In this document: positions 14,088 through 57,109 of the stretch, piece by piece
Layout of the letters: the number at the start of each line of letters is the position of its first letter
Numbering within the stretch: the stretch's first letter is position 1
NCBI GenBank assembly: GCA_013239625.1
Contig: MU053136.1
Location: forward strand, 762,017 to 826,016
Source of the DNA: Lama guanicoe
Lineage: Eukaryota
Length of the DNA stretch: 64,000 bases
Direction: 5' to 3'
Program-made: the position numbers and the translations under genes
The notes under the pieces: model-generated
What the model saw: only the letters and a program-made list of their open reading frames with translations
Databases searched by the model: none
Told to the model about the DNA's origin: nothing

Positions 14088-14785
14088 AAGGAATCAGTAG
14101 AAAGTATTTGAAGATGTGATAGCCAAAAACTTACCTAACCTGGGAAAGGAAACAGACTTCCAAGTCCAGAAAGCACAGAATTTCAAACAGGATCAACCCA
14201 AAGGGGAACACACCAAGACACACTGTAATTAAAATGGCAAAAAATTAAAGAGAATATTAAAAGCAACACAAGGGGAAAGCAACAAGTTATGCACAAGGGA
14301 ACTCTCATAAAGCTATCATCTGGCTTTTCAGCAGAAATTCTGCAGGCCAGAAGGGAGTGACATGATACAGTCAAAGTGACAAAAGGGTGAAACCTACAAC
14401 CAAGAATACTCTACCTACCGAGGCTGTCATTCAAATTTGATAGAGAAATGAAAAGTTTTATAGATAAGCAAAAACTTAGAGTTCAGAACCACCAAACCAT
14501 CTTTATAAGAATGGTTAAAAGGACTTCGTGAAGTGAAAAAGAAAGGCCACAACTAGAAACATGGAATTACAAAAGGAAAAAGGCAGATATACAATAAAGG
14601 AAGTAAATGAGCCATATCAAAGCTAGTAGTAAGGTTAAAAGACAAAAGGAGTAAAATCATTTATATCTATAATAAACAGTTAAGAGGTACACAAAGCAAT
14701 TAGATGTAAAAATGATGTCAAAAACAATAATCATGAGGGAAGGAGAGTACAAATGCAGGGTTGCTAAAATGCATTTGAAATTAAA
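14088..14785 (+). mobile_element. Older L1 ORF1 3' half and inter-ORF fragment
   Basis: Degenerate ORF1 DNA (atagccaaaaacttacctaacctgggaaaggaaacagac; ctgcaggccagaagggagtg) homologous to the adjacent younger ORF1. Confidence 0.75.
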
Positions 14786-16520
14786 AGACACAGTGCCAGA
14801 GAGATATGAGCAATATGAAGAAGCAGAATAACCACTCCCAATTAAAAGATCAAGAGAAATCCCCTGAAAGTATGATCAAGGAAATAGACACTGATGGTCT
14901 ACTAGATCAAAACTTCAAAAAAGAGCTGATCAAAGTACTGAAGGAACTAAAACAGATAGTGTTTAGAGATATAAAATATGTCAAAAATGAAATAGAAGCT
15001 ATAAAGAACCAAGTAGTATTAGTAAACTCATTTGCTGAGGTGAGAGCTGCCCTAAAGGCTGTCCAAAGCAGGCTAGATAATGCAGAGGAACAAATAAGTG
15101 ACCTAGAAGACAGGACAACAGAAAGCGCCCAATCAGAAGAGCTGAGAGAAAAATAATGAAAACAATATAAGGGACTGATGGGATAACATAAAGCATGCCC
15201 ATCTATGCATAATAGGGGTTCCAGAAGGGGAAGAAAGAACAAAGAGGATTGTAAAGGTATTGGAAGAAATCATGACTGCAAACTTCCCAAACCTAAAGAA
15301 AGAATCAGATATCCAAGTAGAGGAGGCTCAGAGGGTTCCAAACAGGAAGAACCCAAACAGACCCACGCCAAGACATACCATAATCAAGATGGCCAGAGAC
15401 AAGGATAAAGAAATGATCCTGAAGGCAGCAAGAGAAAAACAAATTGTGAGTTACAAGGGACCCCCCCATGAGGCTCTCAGCTGATTTCTCGACACAAACA
15501 CTACAGGCCAGAAGGGAGTGGCAAGATATATTCAAAGTCCTGAAAAAAAGATGCAGTCTAGGATACTCTATCCAGCAAGGGTATCCTTCAGAATAGAAGG
15601 AGAGAGAAAGAACTTCACAGAGACAAGCAAAAACTGAAAGAGTTTAGCAACACTAAATCCATGCTAAAAGAAATATTGACAGGTCTACTCTAAATAGAAA
15701 AGAAGCAGGATGCTACAAAAATGAGAAACTCATAACTGGAAAGGAGATAACTGCCATGAATTCCAAAAAGAATAAACAAAGAATTGTAAAAGAAGACATC
15801 TAAATCACTGAAAGTGAGAGAGGGAAGCAAGGAAAGCCACTGTGGAAAACAGTATGGAGACTCCTCAGGAGACTAGGAATAGACTTACCATGTGACCCAG
15901 GAATCCCACTCCTGGGCATATATCCAGAAGGAATCCTACTTCAAAATAACACCTGCACCCCAATGTTCATAGCAGCACTATTTACAATAGCCAAGACATG
16001 GAAACAACTTAAATGTCCATCAACAGATGACTGGATGAATAAGAAGTGGTATATTTATACAATGGAATACTATTCAGCCACAAAAACCAACAACATAATG
16101 CCATTTGCAGCTACATGGATGTTCCTGGAGAATGTCATTCTAAGTGAAGTAAGCCGGAAAGAGAAAGCAAAATACCATATGAGATCACTCATATGTGGAA
16201 TCTAAAACAAACAAACAGACAAAAAAAAAACAAATACAAAACAGAAACAGACTCATAGACATAGAATACAAACTTGTGGTTGCCAAGGGGGCGGGGGGTG
16301 GGAAGGGACAGACTGGGATTTCAAAATGTAGAATAGATAAACAAGATTATGCTGTATAGCACAGGGAAATACATACAAGATCTTGTGTTAGTGCACAGCG
16401 AAAAAAATGTGACAATATATATATGTTCATCTATAACTGAAAAATCATGCTCTACACTGGAATGTGACACAACATTATAAAATGACTAGTACTCAATAAA
16501 AAATGTTAATTATCAAAAAA
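14786..16520 (+). mobile_element. 5'-truncated second copy of the same ORF2-deleted L1 derivative
   Basis: ORF1 fragments (14806..15156, 15260..15484) closely match the 24569-27355 copy. Same junction gcaaggaaagccactgtgg near 15834; ORF2 C-terminus 15963..16205; 3'UTR with AATAAA and A-rich tail. Confidence 0.88.
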
Positions 16521-16599
16521 AATCATGTAGGAGGAAAAAAGAAAGAAAAATACATTTCTACTTTTGTATTATATATATAAAGCATACATAATTATACAT

Positions 16600-18590
16600 A
16601 AAGTATAATTGACCTGGACACTGTGTTCACTCCGGGTTCACAACATAGTGACTTGATGTTTTTATAGGTTACAAAGTGATCACCACAGCAAGTCTGGTCA
16701 CCATCTGTCACCATACAAAGTTATCACTTTATTGACTGTAGTGGGGAGGGTGTAGCTCAGGGGCAGAGCACATGCCCAGCATGCATGAGGTCCTGGGTTC
16801 ACTCCCCAGCACCCCCATTAAAAAAATTAAACAAATATTATTGACTGTAACCCCCGTGCTGTACATTTTATACCCGTGACTCCTTTATGTTGTACCTTGA
16901 AGTTTGTACCTCTCAATCTGCCTCACATATTTCTCTCATCCCCCCACCATCGTTCCTTCTGGCAACTACCAGTTCGTTCACTGTATCTATGGGTCTGCTT
17001 CTGTTTTGTTACATTTATTCGTTTTGTTTTTTAGGTTCCACACACAAGTGAAATCATACGTACATTCTTTCTCTGTCTGACTTATTTCATTTAGCATAAT
17101 ACCCTCTGGGTACATCCATGTTGCCACAAATGGCAAGATTTCATTCTTTTTAATGGCTGAGTTATATTCCTCCTCTTTATCCATTCATCTACTGATGGAC
17201 ACTTAGATTGCTTCCATTTCTTGGTTATTGTTAAATAATGCTTCAGTGAACACAGGGGTGCATGTATCTTTTCAAATTAGTGTTTTTATTTCCTTTAGAA
17301 AAACACCCAGAAGTAGAATTGCTGTATCATATGGTAGTTCTATTTTTAGTTTTTTTAGGAAACTTCATGCCATTTTCCCAGTGGTTGTACCAATTTCCAT
17401 TCTCACCAATAGTGCACAAGGGTTCTCCTTTCTCCACATCCTCCCCAACACTTGTTATTTGTTGTCTTTTTGATAATAGCCATTCTGACAGGAGTGAGAA
17501 TATAGCTCATTGTGGCTTTGATTTGCATTTCCCTGATTATTAGTGATGTTGAGCATCTTTTCACGTGCCTGTTGGCCATCTGTATGTCTTTAGAAAAATG
17601 CCTATTCAGGTCCTCTGCCCATTTTTTAAATCAGATTGTTTATTTGTTTGACCTTGAGTTGTATGTGTTCTTTGTATTTTTTGGATATTAAACTCTTCTC
17701 AGATATATCATTTGCAAATGATAAACTTCTCCCATTCAGTAAGTGACCTTTCCATTTTGTTTATGGTTTCCTGGCCCACTGGTGGGCAGGGCTGGGACCT
17801 GGCATGGCAGACTGCACTGCCCAGGGAGTCCTGGGGATGGTGCTGGTCCACTGTGGGTGGGGCTGGTTCCCGCATGGCTGGCTACTTGGCCTGAGGAGTC
17901 CTGGGACTAGTGCTGACTGGCTGGTGGGGGGAGGGGTAAGCCCACAGGATGAGTGGGCTAGAGAGAGGACTCCAGAATGGCACTTGCCAGCACCAGTGTC
18001 CTCATGGTAGAACAGGCTCCCCAGAATTGCTGCCACCAGCATCCGTGGTCCCAGGGGCGTCCCAGTTGCCTCCTGCCTCTCTGGGAGGCACTCCAAGATC
18101 AACAAGTGAGTCTGACCCAGGCTCCTTTCAAATTACTGCCTCTGCACTAGGTCACAGGGTATGTGAGATTTTGCATGTGTCCTTAAAGGGCTCTGTTTCC
18201 TAAGCCCTCTAGTTGAGGATAGTATTCAAGCCCCACTGACCTTAAAAGTCATACGTTGTAGGGGCTTATCTTCCCAGTGCAGAGCTCCCAGGCTGTGGAG
18301 CCCAGTGTGGGGCTCGGAGCCCCCTCCTTTGGGAACACCTCTGCAGTTGTGATTACCCTCCCATTCCTCAGTCACCTACCAGATAGTGTGGCTCTTGACT
18401 ATTACAGGTCTCTACCCCTCCTACCCATCTCAGTATGGTTCCTTCTTTATAACTGTAGTTGTGGGAAATCTTTTCTGCTAGTCTTCATGTTATTCTCATC
18501 AATAGTTACCTGTAAATACTCGCAGTTTCAGTGAATGTGAGGAGGTGAGCTCAGGGTCTTCCTACTCCGCTATCTTGGCCACTCCTCCCA
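16600..18590 (-). mobile_element. Older L1 with 5'UTR joined directly to the ORF2 3' end
   Basis: L1-type 5' end (ctactccgctatcttgg ~18565-18578); GC-rich UTR 17771-18590; abrupt junction at 17770/17771 into ORF2 C-terminal DNA and 3'UTR (ORF 16987..17184). Confidence 0.7.
16741..16837 (+). mobile_element. tRNA-derived SINE (camelid Vic-1-like)
   Basis: ggggagggtgtagctcag...gggttcactcccc (A/B boxes), A-tail, 12-bp TSD ttattgactgta (16729-16740 / 16838-16849). Confidence 0.85.
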
Positions 18591-21500
18591 TCCCAGGGGA
18601 GATTTCCTTCTGACTTTTTCATTTTAGGTTCCAAATCTTCAAATGGGATATGAGATTTTGGACTTAAAATGACATGGACTAAAGACAGAAAAGTCTTGCC
18701 CCTTGGGAAACCATAGGCAGAAGTAACTAGACATCGAAGACAGGAGTTTGGCCTCACTGGGAGGGAAGAGGTACAGAGAAAGAACCCAGTCATGAGAAGC
18801 TCCTAAAGACAGCTCCACCTCAGCCAACGTGGGGTTAGAAAACTTAGTGGATGAATTTAATATACAGCTTGTGGCCATGTTAGTCTTAATCACATTGATG
18901 CTTTGGAATGTTTCTTCTCAAATCCATTCCTTTTCTGTTCCTAAAGTACATTATTCTGAAATAATGTGAAAACATTAATCTGTGAAAACATTAATTCTGA
19001 ACATTAACCTGCTCACTCAAGATAAACATCTTGATATTTTAAAAGTCTTTTTAGTTCAAATAGTGCCTTGTGATGTCTCTGCCCAGAGCAATGTGACCCA
19101 TGACCTATGTTATCAGAACCACCTATTTCAATACATTTGTCAACATACCATGTTTGTAAAAAGGTGTCAGTGTTATGTAAGTGTTATATAAGTTGAGCTA
19201 GGTGTTTTCCTAGCTGGCGTTACTGAATTTTGTCAGATAGTTTATATTCTAACCTAACTCCAAATTACTTTATCTTTTAAGAAATAGAAGCAAAGAAACT
19301 TGTTTTCACATATACACACTAAGCAATTTACAAAAGTTCACAAGTCATATCTTATAGATGAGAATGATGAAATTGGTAAAAAGAAACACCTTTTCACCTT
19401 TTCATAGAAAAGTATATGGTAAGTGCTCAAGATACTTACACTTGGTCCATTTTAAATCACTGGAGTCCTTCCTCACTGCTTTATATAACATCACCAAAAC
19501 CCACTCATTCTTTCTTTGCAGTGCCTCTAGGATGCATTTTTCCTCTCCATTTCAAAATAAGATCATAGACTTTCTTCATGTTTTCTATAAACTGGAAAAT
19601 ACTACACAAATGCAAGATATTATTATTCCCACTATAGTCTCCTTTCTCTAGAACATTAACATCATTACCTTCTCTTTAGGTCTGTGTACCCTTCTGATTC
19701 CCCTTTCTCCAGTCTTACCCTCTTCTTGTTCCCACTAATTTGACATGAAAGACCGTAAGTATCTTGGTCACAAATGTATCTCTTCTCTGGGACATGGAAG
19801 TGGTAGCAAATATGACAAGCAAATACTTAACAGCTATATCGTATAAAGATCCGTGCATGTTGGTAGACAAAAACATTAAAACAACATTAGATAAAGGGCC
19901 ACAGAATTACGTACCATGAGACAGAACATAAATGGATCTATGGAGACCTTAGGCTCCTTTACTATAATTTAAAGGAACTTTTCTATCTTCAGCTACCTGT
20001 TGAGAAGCTATAAAAATATTTATGTTCCCTGACCTCCTCCCAAGAAAATAATACAAAAGACAACAGATCTATAGTCCCAGTGTTGCTTGCTGCAACATTA
20101 TTTACAATCACAGATATTTGTTATATCCTAATGTCCAATTACTAGAAGATACATGGACTATGAATTATAATACAGTTTATTAAAATATATAAATATTGTG
20201 TAGAATGATAGATTATTAAGTGAGAATAAAACATTATTTGACACTATAATTAAAACATTAAAATTCTGTCTATGAAGTGACAAGAATTAGAAGGAAATGT
20301 GGAAAGCTCAAACTCTGATTTTTTGGGGTGTTAAAGTGGCTTCTTCTCTTTCTTTTATTTTCATTTCCATGAATGCTGTTCATGCAAAATTCTAAACTGC
20401 TTTTTTTTTTGAAGAATCTAGCTATTGATTATTTAAAACAAAGTTATTTTGTTATTTTACCTTCTGTAAAATAGGGATAAAAACAATACACACCTCACAG
20501 AGATGTCGAGACTTAAAGTTAGACTTTTTTTTTTAAACCAGCATTTTGGAAACTGCCCAACAAAAGGCAAATGTAGAGACCTACTACATGCCACTGTGCT
20601 AGGAGCTGTCTGCATTCACGCACATACACACACGCATGCACACAAACACACAATCTCATTTATCTTCATTCTGTTCCTGCCCTTGCAGGCCCCATCTTTT
20701 CCAATCAACCTGCTGTCTCCCCAGGGTTCCCCAGCATAAACTTCCTCTTCAGGGAAAGTTCCTTCAGCCCTCACACAGCCAGCTGCACAGTCCTGCTCAA
20801 ACACTTTGACACGTGTTGTCCAATCTAACAAGTACCTATTGAACAGCCGCCAAGAAAAATGATACGAACATATAAAGATTGAGTTCCTTGCCTAAAAGGG
20901 TTGTCAATCTCATCTGAGAAACCAGGTAGATTCTAAAAACTATCTGCTTAAGGGAGAAAAGTTATCTACAACTTGGAATATATAATTTATCGTCCAAACC
21001 AATCCATTTTTGAGAGTATGAAGGAGGGTATTAATAGTTATGTTGAGGCAATAGGAGTAAACTGGGCAAAATAGGGCATGCGGACCCCATAAGGAGACCA
21101 GATCTGGGTAACTGAAGGACCCTTTGTTTGCTGAGCACCCAGAGGGACCTGGGTTTGCCACCTGGGGCAGGAAATGGGACCAAACTAAGTTAATCTACAT
21201 GATGGGGAAGTTGATGTTTCCAGGGAGACACCCAGAGCAATGGGAAGAAGTCAAAAGGCTGGAAGCAGGGGGAAGAGCTTCAGGCCGAGAGGCCCCTGTG
21301 AGAAGGTAGCAGAGAAGAGATTTGGGGGACTCAAACCAGCCTGTTCTGAATTTTAAATTGCTTGCTTCAAGGCATGTAAACAACTTCCATCTTCTCCCCT
21401 ACAAAATCCTCAGTAAAAGCTGTGTTGCCCACTCTACTCTTTTGTAAGTGGATTCTTTGGGGGGAAAGTAGTGAGATTCTGAGTTCTGCTTTGGGGTTTA

Positions 21501-24500
21501 TGTAGGGGCAAAACCAGACATGCCTACCAGAGCTAGGGTACAGAGCTAGATCAGTCAACTAAAGCAACTCTTTTTGAGTTTATCTTATGTTTTAAACACT
21601 AGGCCCTTTATACGCATTTTTTGTTTTTCATCTTTAAACAAGCTTCAATCCTTGCACAGTGCTGAAGTGTATGGTATAGACTGTGAGTTCCACAGGGAGC
21701 AAACTAGGGAGGAAGGAGTTTGGGTGAGAAGAGTCAGAACAGACTTCCTAGAGGCCCACAAAAGGGAAGGGAAGGGAGGCCGATCCAGAGGGGATGGCGT
21801 GAACAAAGATGGGGATAAGAATGAGCTGGCATTTACAGGGAAAGCGAGGAGGCCAGTCTTTTCTGCTAAGGAGTGGGGAGCCATTTGAAGGAAGCTGGAT
21901 GAAGCCTTCAGGATCTTCAGTCAGCAGAGTTAGAGAAGGAAAAAACACCTGCTACAGCCTGTTCCCCAAATGCCACAGTGCCTCCTTTCATGGCCAGGAC
22001 GCAGCTCCTCCGTTCCAGAGTGCTCCAGAGCCTGAGATTCCCTGAGGCTTTCATGTTCTGTAGCTTGGCTTCACCCTCTTAACCCTCAGCTACCCCTGGC
22101 TGCTGGTGGTGCTGCCTGGCAGCTGAGGTGAAAGTCTCAGGCGGGGGGGCCAAAGAAGCAGCAGGTCAGAATCCTTTTCAAGCAATGTATCCCCCCACTT
22201 TTTAATTATAATTATTTGCATATGCAAGAGAATATGTGTAGTGTGCATAGGTAAGTTCAGAAGCAAAATAACTAAACAGCCATGAGGCCTCCACCAATCT
22301 GAGAACTAGAATATTACCAGTATTATTGAAGTCCCATATGACTCCTTCCCATCCCAAGCTCCTTCCTCTCCCAGAGGTAACCATCATCCTGAACTTTGTC
22401 TTTTCCCCTCTTTTTCTTTGTGTACTTACCATACACACACACACACACATATATATATACACATTCCTAAACAACATATTCTTTCTGTTTTCTTGTTTTT
22501 AAACTTTATAAAAATCTTTTCATACTACTGTCTTCTAAACTTGCTTTTGTCACTTAACCTTGTATTTCTAAGATTAATCCATTGATGTTAGACGGGACAG
22601 TTCATTCATTTTCACTGCTAAATAGTTTCCATTTTATGACTATACTGCAATGTATTTCTCCGTTTTTCTACTGATGGTCGCCTTTTGTCTTTTAAAAAAT
22701 TTATTGTGAGATTACAAAAGTAAGATATATTTGTTGTAGATAATTGGAAAATACAAAAGATGATAAAAATTGTTTGAAATCTCACTACCGTCAGCATCTT
22801 GATTTATATGTTTTCAGTCATTTTAGCCCATTTTTTAACAAAATGTGGATCATACTGAACACAATCCACATTTTACTTAACCATGTCATGAATATCTCCC
22901 TATTCAGCAAGCTTCATCCTTCTACAACTTGATTTTTAATGACTATTTTTTACTCTCTAATAGTTGATGGACACCTAAAATTTTTGAGGAAGACAACTGA
23001 GGTTGTCATGAAAAAGCATTCTGAAAAGAAAATTGGGGCAGAGGAAGCTAAATGTAGAAGGCCACTTCAGAGGCCATTGTAATTATCTGTGCCCTGGCTG
23101 CCTTCCCAGTGCCTTGGGAGCTCTGGGAGAGACCCTGAGAAATGAAAACAGATCCTAACCCTCAGCAAGATGTACAGTGCAAAGCACCACAGGGTGAATC
23201 CAGGAACAAGTACTGTGAGAACTCAGAAGAGGGTAGGAGTCGGGGTCTGGCAGGGCCTCCCAGAGGAAAGGGACAGGGGGTGGCAAACGGGACAAGGGGG
23301 CTCAGCAAGTAAAGGCCCTCTTGAAAAATTATGTGTGGACTTAGGCCTTCTCCCTTCTGTCCATCATCTGTTAGTCATCATTTTCTACTCTTTCAAATGA
23401 GAGTAGGAAGTCCTCTTCCTTACTCCTCTTTCCATATGGAGACTCGTTCTCATTTGTTTTCTCACAACTCCTTCAGAAGAAGACCAGCCTGAAGAACCTC
23501 CAGCCACAAGGAGGGTGATTCAGCATAACTTTTAACTGATTTAAAATCCTTGAAAATGGTCTTTGGCAACTTCATATTTGATTCATCGCCTGCTTCATAC
23601 TTTGTCAATTGCTACTTATAAGCACACACAGGTCGCTGCTTATAAACACATACAATTTCTTTGGCAACAAATTTCTGCTTCACTTCCATGGCCTAGCTCA
23701 TCTCTCTGTTACATTTGCTAAGAAACCTTCCCCCAAGTTCTTTTCTTTCCTCCTACCCCTCTTAAGTAATGGCTCCTTTCTCTGAGCCGCATTGTCCCAG
23801 TACCAGCCATTGTCACCCCACGCAGGGTTATAGTTGCTTGCTGTAGTCTTAACAATATGCTCTCCAAAAGGAGGGATCCTGCCTCCTTGGCTCTGTGCTC
23901 CCAGTGCCTGACTCCAAGAAGCTTAGTATTGTAAAATGGACACTACTTCAAAAAAAATAAAAGCAAAAGGAATGTAGGAAAAATTTAGGGGGCACAATAT
24001 TTCCTTGGGTGTAGACTAAAGAGACCTCAGCTCTGGGTAACTTTGTTACATAAGCACATCAGAAGTTTTTCATGGCACTATTTTCTATCAAATTGCCTCT
24101 GTGTCCTGCATGTTCCACATAAAACCACAATCTTATTATCACTTCCACCCACGCCGAAAACCTGCAGCACGTCTCAGTGAACAACTCTTCATATCTGCAA
24201 AGCTCTGAAGCACCTGTCTCTGCTTTCTCACTTAATGACTATTTATGAAGCAACTATTATGTTCAAGGAACAATCTCTTTTGACGTCCCCTGCAGCACCC
24301 TTGAGACCCATTGCAAGAGACAAACAAAGCTTCTATTATAAAGGTACACCCAGATGCTAAGTAATGATGGGTGAGGGTGCAACCAGCTTTACTACTGCAA
24401 CTCATGTTCTCAAAGTTATTACATGCTGTACTTCCTGTGTCCCAGCTTTCCCTGTGCCTTTTAAACTTTAATAACAGGATGGCAGCATGATACAAGCCAT

Positions 24501-24568
24501 CTAGAAACAACTTTTAAAAGTAAGGCTGCTAAAGTTTAGGAAAACTTTCTTGTATACACTATATTTTC

Positions 24569-27355
24569 TTTTTCTTTTCTTTTTTTTTTAACATTTTTTA
24601 TTGAGTACTAGTCATTTTACAATGTTCTGTCAAATTCCAGTGTAGAGCACAATTTTTCAGTTATACTTGAACATATATATATTCATTGTCACATTTTTTT
24701 CACTGTGAGCCACCACAAGATCTTGTATATATTTCCCTGTGCTATACAGTATAATCTTGTTTATTTATTCTACATCTTGAAATCCCAGTCTGTCCCTTCC
24801 TACCCACCGCCCCCTTGGCAACCACAAGTTTGTATTCTATGTCTATGAGTCTGTTTCTGGTTTGTTTGTTTGTTTGTTTTTTAGATTCCACATATGAGTG
24901 ATCTTATATGGTATTATTTCTTTCTCTTTCTGGCTTACTGCACTTAGAATGACATTCTCTAGGAACACCCATGTTGCTGCAAATGGCGTTATGTTGTCAG
25001 TTTTTATGGCTGAATAGTAATTCCCTTGTATAAATATACCACTTCTTCTTCATCCAGTCGTCTGTTGATGGACATTTAGGATGTTTCCATGTCTTGGCTA
25101 TTGTAAATAGTGCTGCTATGAACATTGGGGTGCAGGTGTTATTTTGACGTAGGGTTCCTTCTGGATATATGCCCGCAAGCAGGATTCCTGGGTCACATGG
25201 TAAGTCTATTCCTAGTCTCTTGAGGAATCTCCATACTGTTTTCCACAGTGGCTTTCCTTGCTTCCCTCTCCCACTCTTAATGATTTAGATGTCTTCTTTT
25301 ACAATTCTGTGTTTATTCTTTTTGGAATTCATGGCAGTTATCTCCTTTCCAGTTATGAGTTTCTCATTTCTGTAGCATCCTGCTTCTTTTCTATTTAGAG
25401 TAGACCTGTCAGTATTTCTTTTAGCATGGATTTAGTGTTGTTAAACTCTTTCAGTTTTTGCTTGTCTCTGTGAAGTTCTTTATCTCTCCTATTCTGAAGG
25501 ACAGCCTTGCTGGATAGAGTATCCACGGCTGCATCTTTTTTTCATTCAGGACTTTGAGTATATCTTGCCACTCCCTTCTGGCCTGTAGAGTTTGTGTCGA
25601 GAAATCAGCTGAGAGCCTCATGGGGGTTCCCTTGTAACTCACAATTTGTTTTTCTCTTGCTGCCTTCAGGATCATTTCTTTATCCTTGTCTCTGGCCATC
25701 TTGATTATGGTATGTCTTGGTGTGGGTCTGTTTGGATTCTCCCTGTTTGGGACCCGCTGAGCCTCCTGTACTTGGATATCTGATTCCTTCTTTAGGTTTG
25801 GGAAATTTGCAGTCATGATTTCTTCCAATACCTTTTCAATTCTCTTTGTTGACAAGCTTTATGTTATCCTATAGGTCCCTTATATTGTTTTCATTGTTTT
25901 TATTTGTTTTTCTCTCAGCTGTTCTGATTGGGTGCTTTCTGTTGTCCTGTCTTCTAGGTCACTTATTTGTTCCTCTGCATTATCTAGCCTGCTTTGGACA
26001 GCCTTTAGGGCAGCTCTCATCTCAGCAAATGAGTTTACTAATTCTACTTGATTCTTCTTTATAGCTTCTATTTCATTTTTGACATATTTTATATCTCTAA
26101 ACACTATCTGTTTTAGTTCCTTCAGTACTTTGATCAGCTCTTTTTTGAAGTTTTGATCTAGTAGACCATCAGTGTCTATTTCCTTGATCATACTTTCAGG
26201 GGATTTCTCTTGATCTTTAAATTGGGCGTGGTTCCTCTGCTTCTTCATATTGCTCATATCTCTCTGGCACTGTGTCTGGTGGGTGGGAGGGTCAATCCCC
26301 CTCCTGATGCCACAGTCAGATGCTGTGCTTGAGGGGAGGGAGGTGGGTGGATCTTGCCCCCCTCCCAGCACCGTGGTCAGGTGTTGCATTCCTACCTAGA
26401 AGGTGGGTGGCCGCCCACCCTATCCTGGCCCAGGTTGCTCGCTCCACCTCAGATTGGCGCTCCGCAGGCAGGCTCAGGGAAGACAGTGGAACGGCCCACC
26501 CCTGCTCTGGGCCAAATCTCAGCTCCTTGTTTGTCTTGGCAGTGCGAGTTCTCTGAGTTGCCAGGGCAGAAAGATCCTATCTGCCTCGGGCTGTAAACAA
26601 GTCTCAATCCTGCCTAGGAGGTTGCGGAGCCCCCGGGTGTGGATTTAGGTCTCACCCCTGCCCCTGCGCTGAGCACAGGAGGACATAGCAGCTGTGGCTG
26701 CGCCTGCCTCTCTTCTCACGAGAAGCGCCAGTAATGGCGCCACGGGTCTTAGGAGACGAAGGCTACAGCGCTCCTACCCCCAGGGCACACCAGCCTTGTT
26801 GCATGCTTTTTTCACAATTTATGGGGGACCAAGGTCATTCTGCTACATATCCCCTCCCAGCCATGGCGCGCAGCACCCAGCAGTCCCCCGGGGCTGCCTC
26901 AGTGCAGCTGTCCTAGTCCTCTGCCCGGCTCGGGTGGCCAGTCCTGGCCCCCAGCTGCCAGCTCACATCTCAGGGTGGGTGTTGCGGGGTCTCTTTGTGC
27001 CCATTTAACTTAGTTCTTTCAGTCAAGGGGTGCTTGGGGCAGATCTGAGCCTCAGAGGCTCCCCCCCTGTCCCACTGGCCTCTCCGTTGGAGGGGGGAGA
27101 CCCAGCAAATGAGCACTAGTCCTCCTTTGCCGCTCCCTCCCCGTGGGACTGGTCCTGCACTGTTTTGTTTTTTCTTCTTTCTTTTTTCCTTTTTTCCTAC
27201 CAGATTCGTGGTGTCTTTGTCTTTCGAAGAAGGCAATGTTCTTTCGGAATTCGGTAGGTGCTCTGGTTGGCTAAGTGGGTCTGAAAATGTGAGTCTTGGT
27301 GTATTTGTGGGAGAGGGTGAGCTACGAGTGTCCTTCTACTCCGCCATCTTGCTTC
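24569..27355 (-). mobile_element. 5'-complete, ORF2-deleted L1 derivative (HAL1-like): CpG-rich 5'UTR, ORF1, ORF2 C-terminal stub, 3'UTR and A-tail
   Basis: Perfect 18-bp TSD tgtatacactatattttc (24551-24568 / 27356-27373). 5' end GAAGCAAGATGGCGGAGTAG. ORF1 ATG at 26257, frameshifted (ORFs 25880..26389 and 25451..25855). Deletion junction ~25254. Confidence 0.9.
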
Positions 27356-28574
27356 TGTATACACTATATTTTCATTTCAGCTCCTATAGCTACTGAGAAG
27401 TGACTAGAATACATAAGAAGTAAAGTATGTCCTCAGACCAGCACAACTAAAGAAATTGTCTGCTCTAACAAAATGCATCACTCTTCCTCCTAAAATGAAA
27501 TTGCACAGAAATAGAAGTTCAGTTTTTAACTGAATAAAGAAGTTTACAAAGTTGGTTCTTTGTGGAGAACAAGGTTGGTGTGAGGTAAGGGGAGCCTGGG
27601 GAAACACAGAAGAAGGAGCTTTCCTCAAAAGAGACTTCTAAAGATGTGATGTTAAGGAGAAGTCTCAGGAAGGAGGGGCCAGTCAAGAAACAAATACTAT
27701 AGCAAGGTCAGTTGAGGCCAAAGCTGATTAGCATCCATTAATTTTTTAATTTGGAAGTTACCAGAGCAGCTGTGGTGCTGGCAAAGAAAAGAGCTGAATT
27801 AGACTAGACTGAGGTGGGTATGAGGGTGAAAAATCAGAAAGGAGAGAAGAAACTTCTCCTTTTGAAGAATTTGAATTTGAAGGAAAGAGCAAGACAGGGC
27901 GGTGTCTAGAAAGAGACACCAGGGTACAAAGGGAGTGTTTTCAATATGGCACAGATGGAAGTGTGTATCTAGACTTGGGGAAAGAACCAGTGACAGGAGT
28001 GGTTGAGAACAAGGCTAGGGAAGGAATAATTGCTAGAGGAAGGATGCAGGAAGGGACTGGATTCACAGCACAGGAGAAGAAATTCTCCTTACATAGGAGG
28101 AGAGACACTGCATCAGACTGCAGAGAAGGAGGTTATGTTGGTCAGCAGGGAACTCAGGAAATGGAGGGATTTCTCATTTGGTACCCTCACTTTTCTCTTA
28201 GTATGACAAGAAGATTGTGGGGTTCAGGGCATTGAGAACTATGGTGAATGTTTGAAAAAACTTATAGGGAAATGGGAGACAGCTGATTAGGGACACAGAA
28301 GCTGCTGCAATAAGCTTGGTATTAGACTTCAGACTCCATATTTTAGTAGCAAGAGACTGACTAAAACAGTGACCCAGGTGTCTGTTCTGTCCTGGGAAGA
28401 GGTGAAGGCAGCAGCAGGTTCACAGATTGGAGAATATAGAGAAAAGGGTCAAGGAACCTGCAGTCTACATGAGATCAAAGAACAAGAATTTGGGAGGATA
28501 GAAAGGAGAGTTCTGGAAACACAGGACCATGTGATCAGAAAGTTGGTACTGAAGTTTAAGATTTCAGAGAAGAA

Positions 28575-28754
28575 GAGGGAAAGGTATAACCCAAGTGGTA
28601 GAGCACATGGTTAGCATGCATGAGGTCCCGGGTTCAATCCTCAGTACTTCTTCTAAAAAAAATAAATAAACCTACCCCCCTTCAAAAAAAAAAGTTATAA
28701 AGAGAGGTGGGGGAAAGTCTCTACCCCTCTTACACCTCCTTTCAAAAAAAAAAA
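28575..28754 (+). mobile_element. tRNA-derived SINE (Vic-1-like)
   Basis: gggaaaggtataacccaagtggtagagcac...gggttcaatcc; A-rich tail; TSD cagagaagaa. Confidence 0.8.
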
Positions 28755-39194: not shown

Positions 39195-40040
39195 ATTTTT
39201 TATTGAAGTATAGTTGATTTACAATGTTTTGTTAGTTTCTAGTGTACAGCAGAGTGATTGAATTATATATAAAGAGAGAGATATTCTTTTTCATATTCTT
39301 TTCCATTATGGTTTATTATAAAAATACCATATGAGATCGCTCATATGTGGAATCTAAAAACAAACAAACAAACAAAGCATAAATACAAAACAGAAATAGA
39401 CTCATAGACATAGAATACAAACTTGTGGTTGCCAAGGGGGCAGAGGGTGGGAAGGGATAGATGGGATTTCAGAATTGTAGAATAGATGAACAAGATTATA
39501 CTGTACAGAACAGCACAGGATACACAAGACCTCATGGTAGCTCACAGAGAAAAAAATGTGACAATGAATATATATATGTTCATGTATAACTGAAAAATTG
39601 TGCTCTACACTGGAATTTGACACAATATTGTAAAATGATTATAAATCAATAAAAAGTGTTAAAAAAAGATATTGAATATAGTTCCCTGTACTATACGTAA
39701 ATCTTTGTTGTTTATCTATTTTATATACAGTAGTTTGTACCTGCTAGTGTCAAACTCCTAGTGTATCCCTCCCCACACCTTTCCCTTTTGGTAACCATAA
39801 ATTTGTTTTCTGTGACTGTGAGTCTTTCTGTTTTGTAAATACATTCATTTGTATCATATTTTAGATTCTATTATATAAGTAATATCATATAATATTTGTC
39901 TTTCTCTGTCTGACTTACTTCACTTAGTATGATAATCTCGAGGTCCATCCATGTTGCTGCAAATGGCAATATTTCATTTTTTATGGCTGAGTAATATTCC
40001 ATTGCGAGTGCACACTTGCACCCGCACGCATGTGTGTATA

Positions 40041-55925: not shown

Positions 55926-57109
55926 ATATGTCACTCTTACGCCCTGCATTCTTTTTCTTTTTCTTTTCTTTAAACATTTTTTATTGATTTATAATCATTT
56001 TACAATGTTGTGTCAAATTCCAGTGTTCAGCACAATTTTTCAGTCATACATGGACATATGCACACTCATTATCACATTTTTCCTCTGTGATTCCCTGTAT
56101 TTTTCTTTTTCTTGAAAGTAGCAACTACAATATAATACATATTAAGTGTTTTTACAGATCTTTTCCTTTTCTATAGATGTTTAGAAAGTGTCTAACTTCA
56201 CAAAGACACACAGAAGCAAGTGTAAGCTAAGACTGTGCTTATTCAACCTGACCATTCCGCTGGTACCTGGGGACAAAAGCCTTTGACTAGTTTTTAGCAT
56301 CTCCATCTTCCTCATCCTTCATATTCAGGCACATTCCAAACCCTGCAGATTCATTAATATTCTGTCTCACATCTCCGCCCTTCCTTATGTTCTAGCTTGG
56401 TTTTCACCTTCACTCTGCTCTCCTGGCCTAAAGCCTCCTACATGGTCCCCTCACCTCCCACTCATTCTGCACACGACTGCTGGATTAATGTTTCTCGGGC
56501 CCAGTCTTAGTCAGGCCATTCCCTCCAGCAGTCCCCACTGTCCACCAAACAAAGGGCAAACTGACCAGGTGACTCTAGGCCCTCCACCTGCAGTCCACTC
56601 ACAAATGTCCGCTTGCAGTCAAGTTGGGAAACTCGCCATTTCTCACACCTGCCAGCACATTTCGACCTTTGGAGCTTTGCTCTTGCTATTTCCTCTGCTT
56701 GTTCACTGAAACAAATATTTATCAAGTACCAACCATGAACCAAGTCCTGGGTGAGTGCTGCAAGTACAAAGAGAAGTAGAACCCAGTGCCTACAGTTAAG
56801 GAGCTCACAGAACTAATGGGGGATATACAAATAGAATTTGACACAACATTCCAAAATGACTACAACTCAGTAAAAAATGTTTTTAAAAAAGGTAAAAAGC
56901 CATATTTCTTCTGTACAGCACAAGGAACTATTTACAATATCTTGTAATAACCTTTAATGAAAAAGAATATGAAAACAAATATATGTATGAATATGCATGA
57001 CCAGGACATTGTGCTGAACACTAGAAATTGACACATTGTAACAGACTATACTTCAATAAAAAAATAACAATAATTTTAAAAAAAGAGAAATTATTTTTAA
57101 AATGTGGAA

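Follow-up and report, generated by a model that had tools for sequence, protein, structure and literature searches.

The closest described relatives of the two L1 derivatives considered here (copies A and B) are the HAL1 (half-L1) elements of Bao and Jurka (2010), as summarised in later reports (PMC5753468, PMC5322556, PMC13756887, PMC4161310). In those summaries, HAL1s derive from L1 but lack its endonuclease (EN) as well as its reverse transcriptase (RT), retain the 5'UTR, ORF1 sequence, 3' end, poly(A) tail and target-site duplication (TSD), and depend on ORF2p in trans, all of which A and B resemble; the differences are that the ORF1 of the A/B source was already frameshifted and unconstrained, and that 122 ORF2 codons are kept. 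Spliced integrated retrotransposed elements (SpIREs; Larson et al. 2018, PMC5860796) are similarly described as internally deleted L1 inserts with recurring identical junctions, some of which need ORF1p in trans. In that account, however, each SpIRE originates separately from an active L1, has parts of the 5'UTR missing and leaves no further copies, whereas the A/B type has a whole 5'UTR (in B), has lost ORF2 instead, and carries private mutations common to its copies. Processed pseudogenes and ORF1mneoI-type RNAs, as portrayed in PMC11260458 and PMC5860796, likewise involve a polyadenylated Pol II RNA that borrows L1 proteins and comes from a single source that is passive or evolves neutrally; the A/B RNA would differ in being L1-derived itself, each 5'-complete copy carrying a promoter. 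For the camelids, supplementary Table 4 of PMC6726744 names the alpaca Repbase families L1-1_Vpa (consensus at least 6207 bp), L1-2_Vpa and L1-3_Vpa, which differ from A and B in being full-length-type consensuses; by name, none of its six HAL1 rows bears the Vpa suffix. L1-1_Vpa is of the camelid L1 lineage, with copies given as ~3% from consensus against 2.7% for each of A and B, and it may be their parent.

Both copies lie in one 64-kb stretch of Lama guanicoe DNA, here called the window. Copy B is a 5'-complete, internally deleted camelid L1 of 2787 bp on the minus strand (24569..27355), and the boundaries of the ~2.8-kb element that had been proposed there hold, as does its perfect TSD: exact 18-bp copies are found on the 5' side (27356..27373) and, directly after the A-rich tail, on the 3' side (24551..24568). 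The 5'UTR (26258..27355, 1098 bp), presumably an internal Pol II promoter, is complete and GC-rich (58%), but the description "CpG-rich" has to be softened, as CpG is moderate (33 in 1095 bp, observed/expected ~0.36 against 0.20 for the whole window). The ORF1 of B (25391..26257; Pfam PF02994, E 2.5e-18, and PF17490, E 7.7e-13) is broken by three frameshifts and one stop: a -1 at ~25902, the stop at ~25869, a 38-bp deletion at ~25857-25841 and a +2 at ~25467, with a further 3-bp deletion at ~25490. The part of the inter-ORF spacer that is kept (25252..25390, 139 bp) ends in the junction AG (25253-25252), and the remaining 24569..25251 consists of an ORF2 C-terminal remnant beginning at PLWKTVW, the 3'UTR and the A-rich tail.

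Copy A (14787..~16510, plus strand, with an A-rich tail continuing to ~16550) is truncated 19 bp before the ORF1 ATG and has the same junction as B. Its homology to B spans 14786-16522, in agreement with the 5'-truncated copy predicted at 14786-16520. At its 5' boundary stands TT|AAAA (14781..14786, plus), the L1 endonuclease consensus; hexamers of this type occur three times in 290 bp of the flank. The ORF1 of A (14806..15693) contains four frameshifts and one stop: an -11 at ~15145-15151, the stop at ~15178, a +1 at ~15461, a -4 at ~15536-15541 and a +2 at ~15621, the last common to B; a 3-bp deletion lies at ~15006. After the junction AG (15835..15836), the last 122 codons and stop of ORF2 are still open (15837..16205), with dromedary L1 ORF2 proteins as their best named relatives (81-84% identity). 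Copy A is placed at the 3' break of an older plus-strand L1 fragment (14101..14786; ORF1 C-half and inter-ORF region, 67% to B), and a comparison of its boundaries gives no clear TSD. A single chimeric insert made of A and this fragment was considered and rejected; the best TSD candidate is 7 bp.

In both copies the spacer after the ORF1 stop (143 bp in A, 139 bp in B) runs directly into PLWKTVW of ORF2 (preceded in the dromedary protein by WWECSLVQ, close to the C-terminus), and is fused at the same base to the last 122 ORF2 codons. A 29-mer across the junction has exactly two matches in the window, both without mismatch (15822-15850, plus; 25238-25266, minus), and none in 100 shuffles. The identical junction and the absence of EN and RT are as the original prediction had them, and neither copy has the intact ORF1 and the ORF2 with EN and RT of an autonomous L1; the term "ORF1-only" does not survive, since ORF1 is broken in both copies and 122 ORF2 codons are kept. 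The missing piece, comprising the spacer end and nearly all of ORF2, would be about 3.4 kb. It is improbable that the founding junction was made by a single splicing event; otherwise it would be a deletion whose microhomology does not exceed 2 bp. No homology is detected between the flanks of A and those of B, again as predicted, and a segmental duplication of one insertion is rejected on this ground.

The two copies have more in common than the junction. Fourteen ORF1 amino-acid changes are found in both and in none of the 15 camelid-type ORF1 proteins, although these may not be the exact parent subfamily; about 0.5 coinciding changes are expected by chance. Three further changes in the ORF2 tail are common to A and B and occur in 0 of the 22-23 camel-type proteins at those sites. 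The common +2 frameshift falls at codon 277 of 300, where both camelid-type proteins that cover the site in frame (P0266 and P0001, 2 of the 15) read through and about 100 of 120 mammalian ORF1 matches have the conserved residues. Because the same piece is missing and the same crippling mutations are present, it is well supported that A and B descend from one source that was already deleted and already broken.

We turn to the state of ORF1 in that source. Eight shared changes can be scored in the C-half of ORF1, and the conservation of their sites (0.37-0.99, mean 0.78) is like that of the nine private changes that postdate insertion (mean 0.78) and that of the background (0.82), with no sign of purifying selection. 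On the shared branch, F157L, I226M, P290S and K297T alter sites conserved at 86-99%. The +2 frameshift deprives ORF1p of the last part of its C-terminal domain (CTD), residues that align to the human CTD in 2YKO/2YKP, and CTD mutants are reported in 10.1101/721357 to destabilise the protein; the source ORF1p had probably lost its function. Since the shared changes hit conserved sites at the same rate as neutral changes, the source, with its ORF1 frameshifted and unconstrained, was probably no functional ORF1-only element, and both L1 proteins would have to come from other elements. The analogy with HAL1 drawn in the original prediction fails on this defining feature.

We propose, with a probability of about 0.5, that a dispersed and fully non-autonomous derivative of L1 gave rise to both copies through RNA some 11-18 Myr ago. 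A camelid L1 would have lost the ~3.4 kb in a single founding event and retained its 5'UTR promoter, 3'UTR and tail. It would then have decayed as neutral DNA, ORF1 frameshift included, yet still been transcribed, and its RNA would have been reverse-transcribed and inserted by ORF1p and ORF2p of intact L1s through target-primed reverse transcription in trans, as with processed pseudogenes. A and B would be two daughters, probably members of a dispersed family with its master at a third locus. An RNA copy is favoured because the A-B homology starts at TT|AAAA and stops at the poly(A) tail, and because the divergence between the copies (5.4%, or 2.7% per copy) is statistically even along their length (chi-square p 0.13-0.86). 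That B is itself a daughter is favoured by its perfect 18-bp TSD, which has a probability of 0.37 for a daughter against 0.07 for an older source, about fivefold. The claim that the deleted form was mobilised repeatedly in trans therefore stands in part: there was a single deleted source and RNA copying in trans is the likeliest route, but "family" refers to two copies with one junction, inverted and 8 kb apart.

This arrangement also suits a purely local history, the strongest competing reading, which we consider rather unlikely: B would be a one-off deleted L1 that decayed in place, and A would have been made from it later by DNA-templated copying, by conversion between the two inverted repeats, which lie 8 kb from each other, or as one retrocopy. 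The neutral shared branch (15 ORF1 changes in common against 10 and 5 private ones) would fit years of residence of B, and A sits at the break of an older L1 without a clear TSD. The longest stretch of aligned bases without an A-B substitution, 164 bases at 14845..15008 of A (plus), has a permutation p of 0.009 (0.048 without CpG changes; a post hoc comparison) and is possibly a later gene-conversion tract; the shared changes are not significantly enriched within it, however (5/54 codons against 10/198 outside, p 0.33). Conversion would have to span all 1.75 kb, as the diagnostic changes begin at ORF1 codon 29 and go on to the final bases of the 3'UTR, and would have to transfer the 3.4-kb deletion as well; moreover, the boundaries of A are like those of a retrocopy, and the TSD of B speaks for a younger B.

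A genuine camelid HAL1 family, whose master has a working ORF1p in cis and of which A and B are a late, ORF1-dead side branch, would agree with the anatomy, and HAL1s are described as having several independent origins in mammals (PMC5753468) and as being at times abundant (PMC3342881), with ~2,100 human copies (PMC5322556). It is nevertheless quite improbable, as the whole shared branch looks unconstrained and 0 of the 15 camelid-type ORF1 proteins carry the diagnostics of the family. Still less credible, indeed very improbable, is recurrent SpIRE-like splicing, in which intact L1s would have used one donor and one acceptor repeatedly and A and B would have inserted independently. Independent insertions with identical junctions are given as the SpIRE signature (PMC5860796), and the right break comes directly after TGCAG in two older L1s within the window and, in dromedary ORF2, after a codon for Gln. 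On the acceptor side, however, where the GT-AG rule was examined, the CAG is preceded by purine-rich sequence (pyrimidines make up ~29% in the two older copies, as opposed to 71% at an acceptor-like site before ORF1), and inserts arising independently from active L1s would not have an ORF1 frameshift and 17 derived amino-acid changes in common; independent spliced insertions are rejected for these shared mutations. The older spacer at 14480-14786 is too diverged to align with the left arm.

For the preferred reading, a dispersed derivative copied through RNA, the search for a third copy is of interest. None of 299 stored proteins has the seven family-diagnostic motifs, and a 45-residue query across the junction, run against 1.84 billion representatives, gave six weak matches, none with the left arm; this fits the local history as well. 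Viral and metagenome contigs, collections poor in camelid DNA, yielded 0 stretches in DNA pattern scans, and protein-guided scans confirmed 0 of 596 candidates in metagenomes (with little camelid DNA), 1 of 112 in genome contigs (a non-camelid 58% match), and, in two scans of viral contigs, 0 of 6 and 1 of 1 (the latter a non-camelid 64% match). The contig of the 58% match belongs to a contaminated rumen-bacterium assembly and looks ruminant. An exact look-up of six window-derived ORFs found 0 of 6 in the collection searched. A word search of sequencing runs with window positions 24000-28000 returned 14 runs from four organisms at 0.55-0.58 of words and six RNA runs at 0.06-0.15, and carries no evidential weight. 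Our literature searches turned up neither a HAL1 nor an ORF2-deleted L1 described from camelids, and the term "HAL1" has 0 occurrences in the main text of two camel repeat surveys (PMC8605555, PMC6675863).

The absence of a third copy from these searches weakens the dispersed-family reading, as do the lack of a clear TSD for A and the 164-bp run. So does copy number: windows with two copies are expected 1.4 times per genome at 300 copies and 15 times at 1000, so a family of several hundred or more is needed for the pair to be likely by chance, while efficient trans-mobilisation of HAL1-like RNA in culture is reported to require functional ORF1p (PMC11260458). That camelids have an uncatalogued family of 2.8-kb L1 derivatives, numbering hundreds to thousands and with a master lacking a working ORF1 or ORF2, is a tentative and somewhat unlikely proposal; it pictures a "SINE-like" L1 parasite that is long, Pol II-transcribed and equipped with a promoter, and that takes both proteins in trans.

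If the pair stands alone, it amounts to a neat but small example of a dead L1 being copied locally. A large family would be an omission from camelid repeat libraries and, dating from close to the camel-llama split, could supply presence/absence markers. Such a family would also test, in nature, whether efficient mobilisation of an L1-derived RNA depends on ORF1p of its own. Cell-culture work answers yes, which a large ORF1-dead family, if true, would contradict; the cis features of L1 RNA (5'UTR, ORF2 tail, 3'UTR) would then suffice to capture the L1 machinery.

We examine two insertions in the window that carry the same internally deleted camelid L1. Copy B (27355-24569, minus strand) is 2787 bp long and flanked by an exact 18-bp target-site duplication (TSD). 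Its 1098-bp 5'UTR (58% GC, CpG observed/expected ~0.36 vs 0.20 in the window) is followed by an ORF1 region with matches to PF02994 and PF17490, a 139 bp spacer, the last part of ORF2, the 3'UTR and an A-rich tail. Copy A (14787 to ~16510, plus strand) starts at a TT/AAAA site 19 bp 5' of the ORF1 ATG and also ends in an A-rich tail. As originally predicted, the junction is the same in both insertions and the flanks are unlike: the 29-mer spanning the junction has two exact matches in the window, one per copy, and none in 100 shuffles, and sequence comparison finds no relation between the flanks of A and B. Among named proteins, the ORF2 remnant is closest to dromedary L1 ORF2 (81-84%), which assigns the window to the camel family. 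In these dromedary proteins the first residues of the remnant, PLWKTVW, come after WWECSLVQ, so the right break lies 122 codons 5' of the ORF2 stop. An ordinary ORF2 has ~1270 codons; at this assumed length an estimated 3.4 kb was lost from the element.

The tail of A (16510-16557, plus strand) is split by ~27 mixed bases from a second A-run, after which an 11-bp match to 14766-14776, with one mismatch, is found. This could be a short 3' transduction with a partial TSD, or chance; if real, the transduction would imply a source other than B. The 5' end of A (14787) coincides with a pyrimidine-rich, acceptor-like AG right before the ORF1 start in B (26276-26291, minus strand), which may be microhomology; a spliced origin of A is unsupported, the sequence 5' of A being unlike the 5' end of B. 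Directly 3' of A is a second, older internally deleted L1 without any ORF1 (16600-18590, minus strand), in which ~820 bp of 5'UTR run, at a break near 17770, directly into the last ~600 bp of ORF2 and a 3'UTR; it has a decayed TSD candidate and is a single copy within the window. The tRNA-like SINE copies at 16740-16835 and near 28580, 30095, 31500, 55850 and 57150 are presumably camelid Vic-1.

An alignment of A with B covers 1666 sites, of which 87 differ (5.2%, K2P 5.4%), and contains 11 indels. The divergence corresponds to 11-18 Myr at an assumed 1.5-2.5e-9 per site per year, near the camel-llama split as quoted in PMC6726744 (16.3 Myr). In ORF1, 14 residues are common to A and B and absent from all 15 camelid-type proteins compared, a set of unnamed proteins (four cluster representatives at 75-88%, P0001, and cluster members) that probably stands for few independent loci. 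A five-reference count over 252 codons, with 48 codons around indels excluded, gives 15 changes common to both copies, 10 confined to A and 5 confined to B, the chance expectation of identical changes being ~0.5. Within 72 residues of the ORF2 tail, three further changes are common to both copies and missing at those sites from all 22-23 camel-type proteins compared (20 named, from dromedary, and 3 unnamed). They also share a 3'UTR variant that is absent from the related 3' ends at 39320-39667 (plus strand) and 55951-56090 (minus strand), two short camelid L1 fragments with 86% and 84% identity to B. These shared derived changes therefore exclude an independent origin, and A and B come from one common broken source.

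The ORF1 of this source was apparently already dead. At codon 277 of 300, both copies have gained two bases (+2; near 15621 in A and 25467 in B), so that the frame terminates five codons later. Of the 15 camelid-type proteins, only two extend across this position in frame; neither is interrupted there, and about 100 of 120 mammalian ORF1 matches likewise continue past it. The residues lost align with the C-terminal domain of the human structures 2YKO/2YKP. Scored against the mammalian matches, mean conservation is 0.78 at eight scorable shared changes, 0.78 at nine private changes and 0.82 in the background, and on these small numbers the shared branch shows no sign of purifying selection. The remaining ORF1 lesions are private to A or B, with the possible exception of a single-base loss (-1) in B near codon 119, where a deletion masks the sequence of A. 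The predicted "ORF1-only" derivative is thus correct as a layout, with most of ORF2 gone and 122 codons kept, and not as a coding capacity, because the source ORF1 is frameshifted and neutral-like. Ten unnamed camelid-type ORF1 fragments (P0267, P0289-P0297) all leave the frame at one place near codon 148, and represent either one locus sampled many times or another ORF1-dead lineage.

With a probability of about one half, we read the pair as members of a dispersed, ORF1-dead, non-autonomous L1 derivative copied via RNA. One deleted L1 with an intact promoter would have sat decaying in the genome, for a time about equal to, or up to twice, the later age of the copies, and its RNA would have been inserted by ORF1p and ORF2p borrowed from other L1s. 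RNA-mediated insertion is favored because B has a tail and a TSD, A has a tail and an endonuclease-type site, the divergence is evenly spread along the copies (chi-square p 0.13-0.86), and a perfect TSD has a likelihood of 0.37 if B is a daughter vs 0.07 if it is the long-resident source. There is a real difficulty: trans-mobilisation of ORF1-defective L1 RNA is described in PMC5860796 as known but inefficient, and a HAL1-like reporter, according to PMC11260458, required functional ORF1p, yet for two random copies to fall in one 64-kb window the family is computed to need at least several hundred members.

It is unlikely, though a serious contender, that B was a one-off insertion and A is a local copy of it. 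The two are inverted relative to each other and 8 kb apart, a neutral shared branch and an absence of relatives would be the natural outcome, and a 164-bp run (14845-15008, plus strand, and its B counterpart) is free of substitutions in copies otherwise ~5% apart. This run (permutation p 0.009, or 0.048 without CpG changes, both post hoc) suggests at least one later gene conversion between the inverted copies. However, the boundaries of A are those of a retrocopy, and the diagnostic changes span all 1.75 kb without significant concentration in the run (5/54 vs 10/198 codons, p 0.33). Recurrent splicing of L1s at the same sites, as in spliced integrated retrotransposed elements, is highly improbable. 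In two older L1s of the window the position of the right break is preceded by TGCAG, so the junction is possibly an exon join, but the sequence 5' of the break in both is purine-rich (~29% pyrimidine), and recurrent splicing leaves the mutations common to A and B unexplained. A single splice in the founder, of which the acceptor side alone is seen, is a doubtful origin of the junction.

Bao and Jurka reportedly argued that ORF1p is essential for HAL1. HAL1 (half-L1) elements have ORF1p as sole product and several origins in mammals, according to PMC5753468, PMC5322556, PMC13756887 and PMC4161310. The predicted likeness to HAL1 extends to dependence on ORF2p in trans; it stops at ORF1p, whose function, judging from the +2 at codon 277 and the neutral-like branch, the source had lost. 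A true HAL1 family of which A and B are an ORF1-dead side branch is accordingly a poor bet. Our literature searches found no camelid HAL1 or ORF2-deleted L1 described, and a term search found no "HAL1" in the main text of two camel repeat surveys. Among 30 of the 138 Vpa rows of a Repbase-based table for the camelid casein cluster are L1-1, L1-2 and L1-3_Vpa, and none of its six HAL1 rows has a Vpa name. An element of the A/B type may already be catalogued in Repbase or Dfam.

The prediction that the deleted form was mobilised repeatedly is borne out as far as the common broken source; a family beyond the pair is a hypothesis, no third copy being found in the stored proteins, with the junction-spanning protein query or in the contig collections, which are poor in camelid DNA. 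The motifs DDWM, TETSK, DTDGLL, KELIKV, MTANFP, ARDKDK and GKQGK occur in 0 of 299 stored proteins, the junction-spanning query finds no protein that crosses the junction, and the scans of the contig collections find no camelid locus of this type. Because the collections contain so little camelid DNA, these negatives show only that such a family does not predominate among ORF1-bearing elements. One contig start in a Ruminococcus metagenome-assembled genome (L001:1-358) is mammalian repeat DNA with an L1 ORF1 fragment, that is, host contamination.
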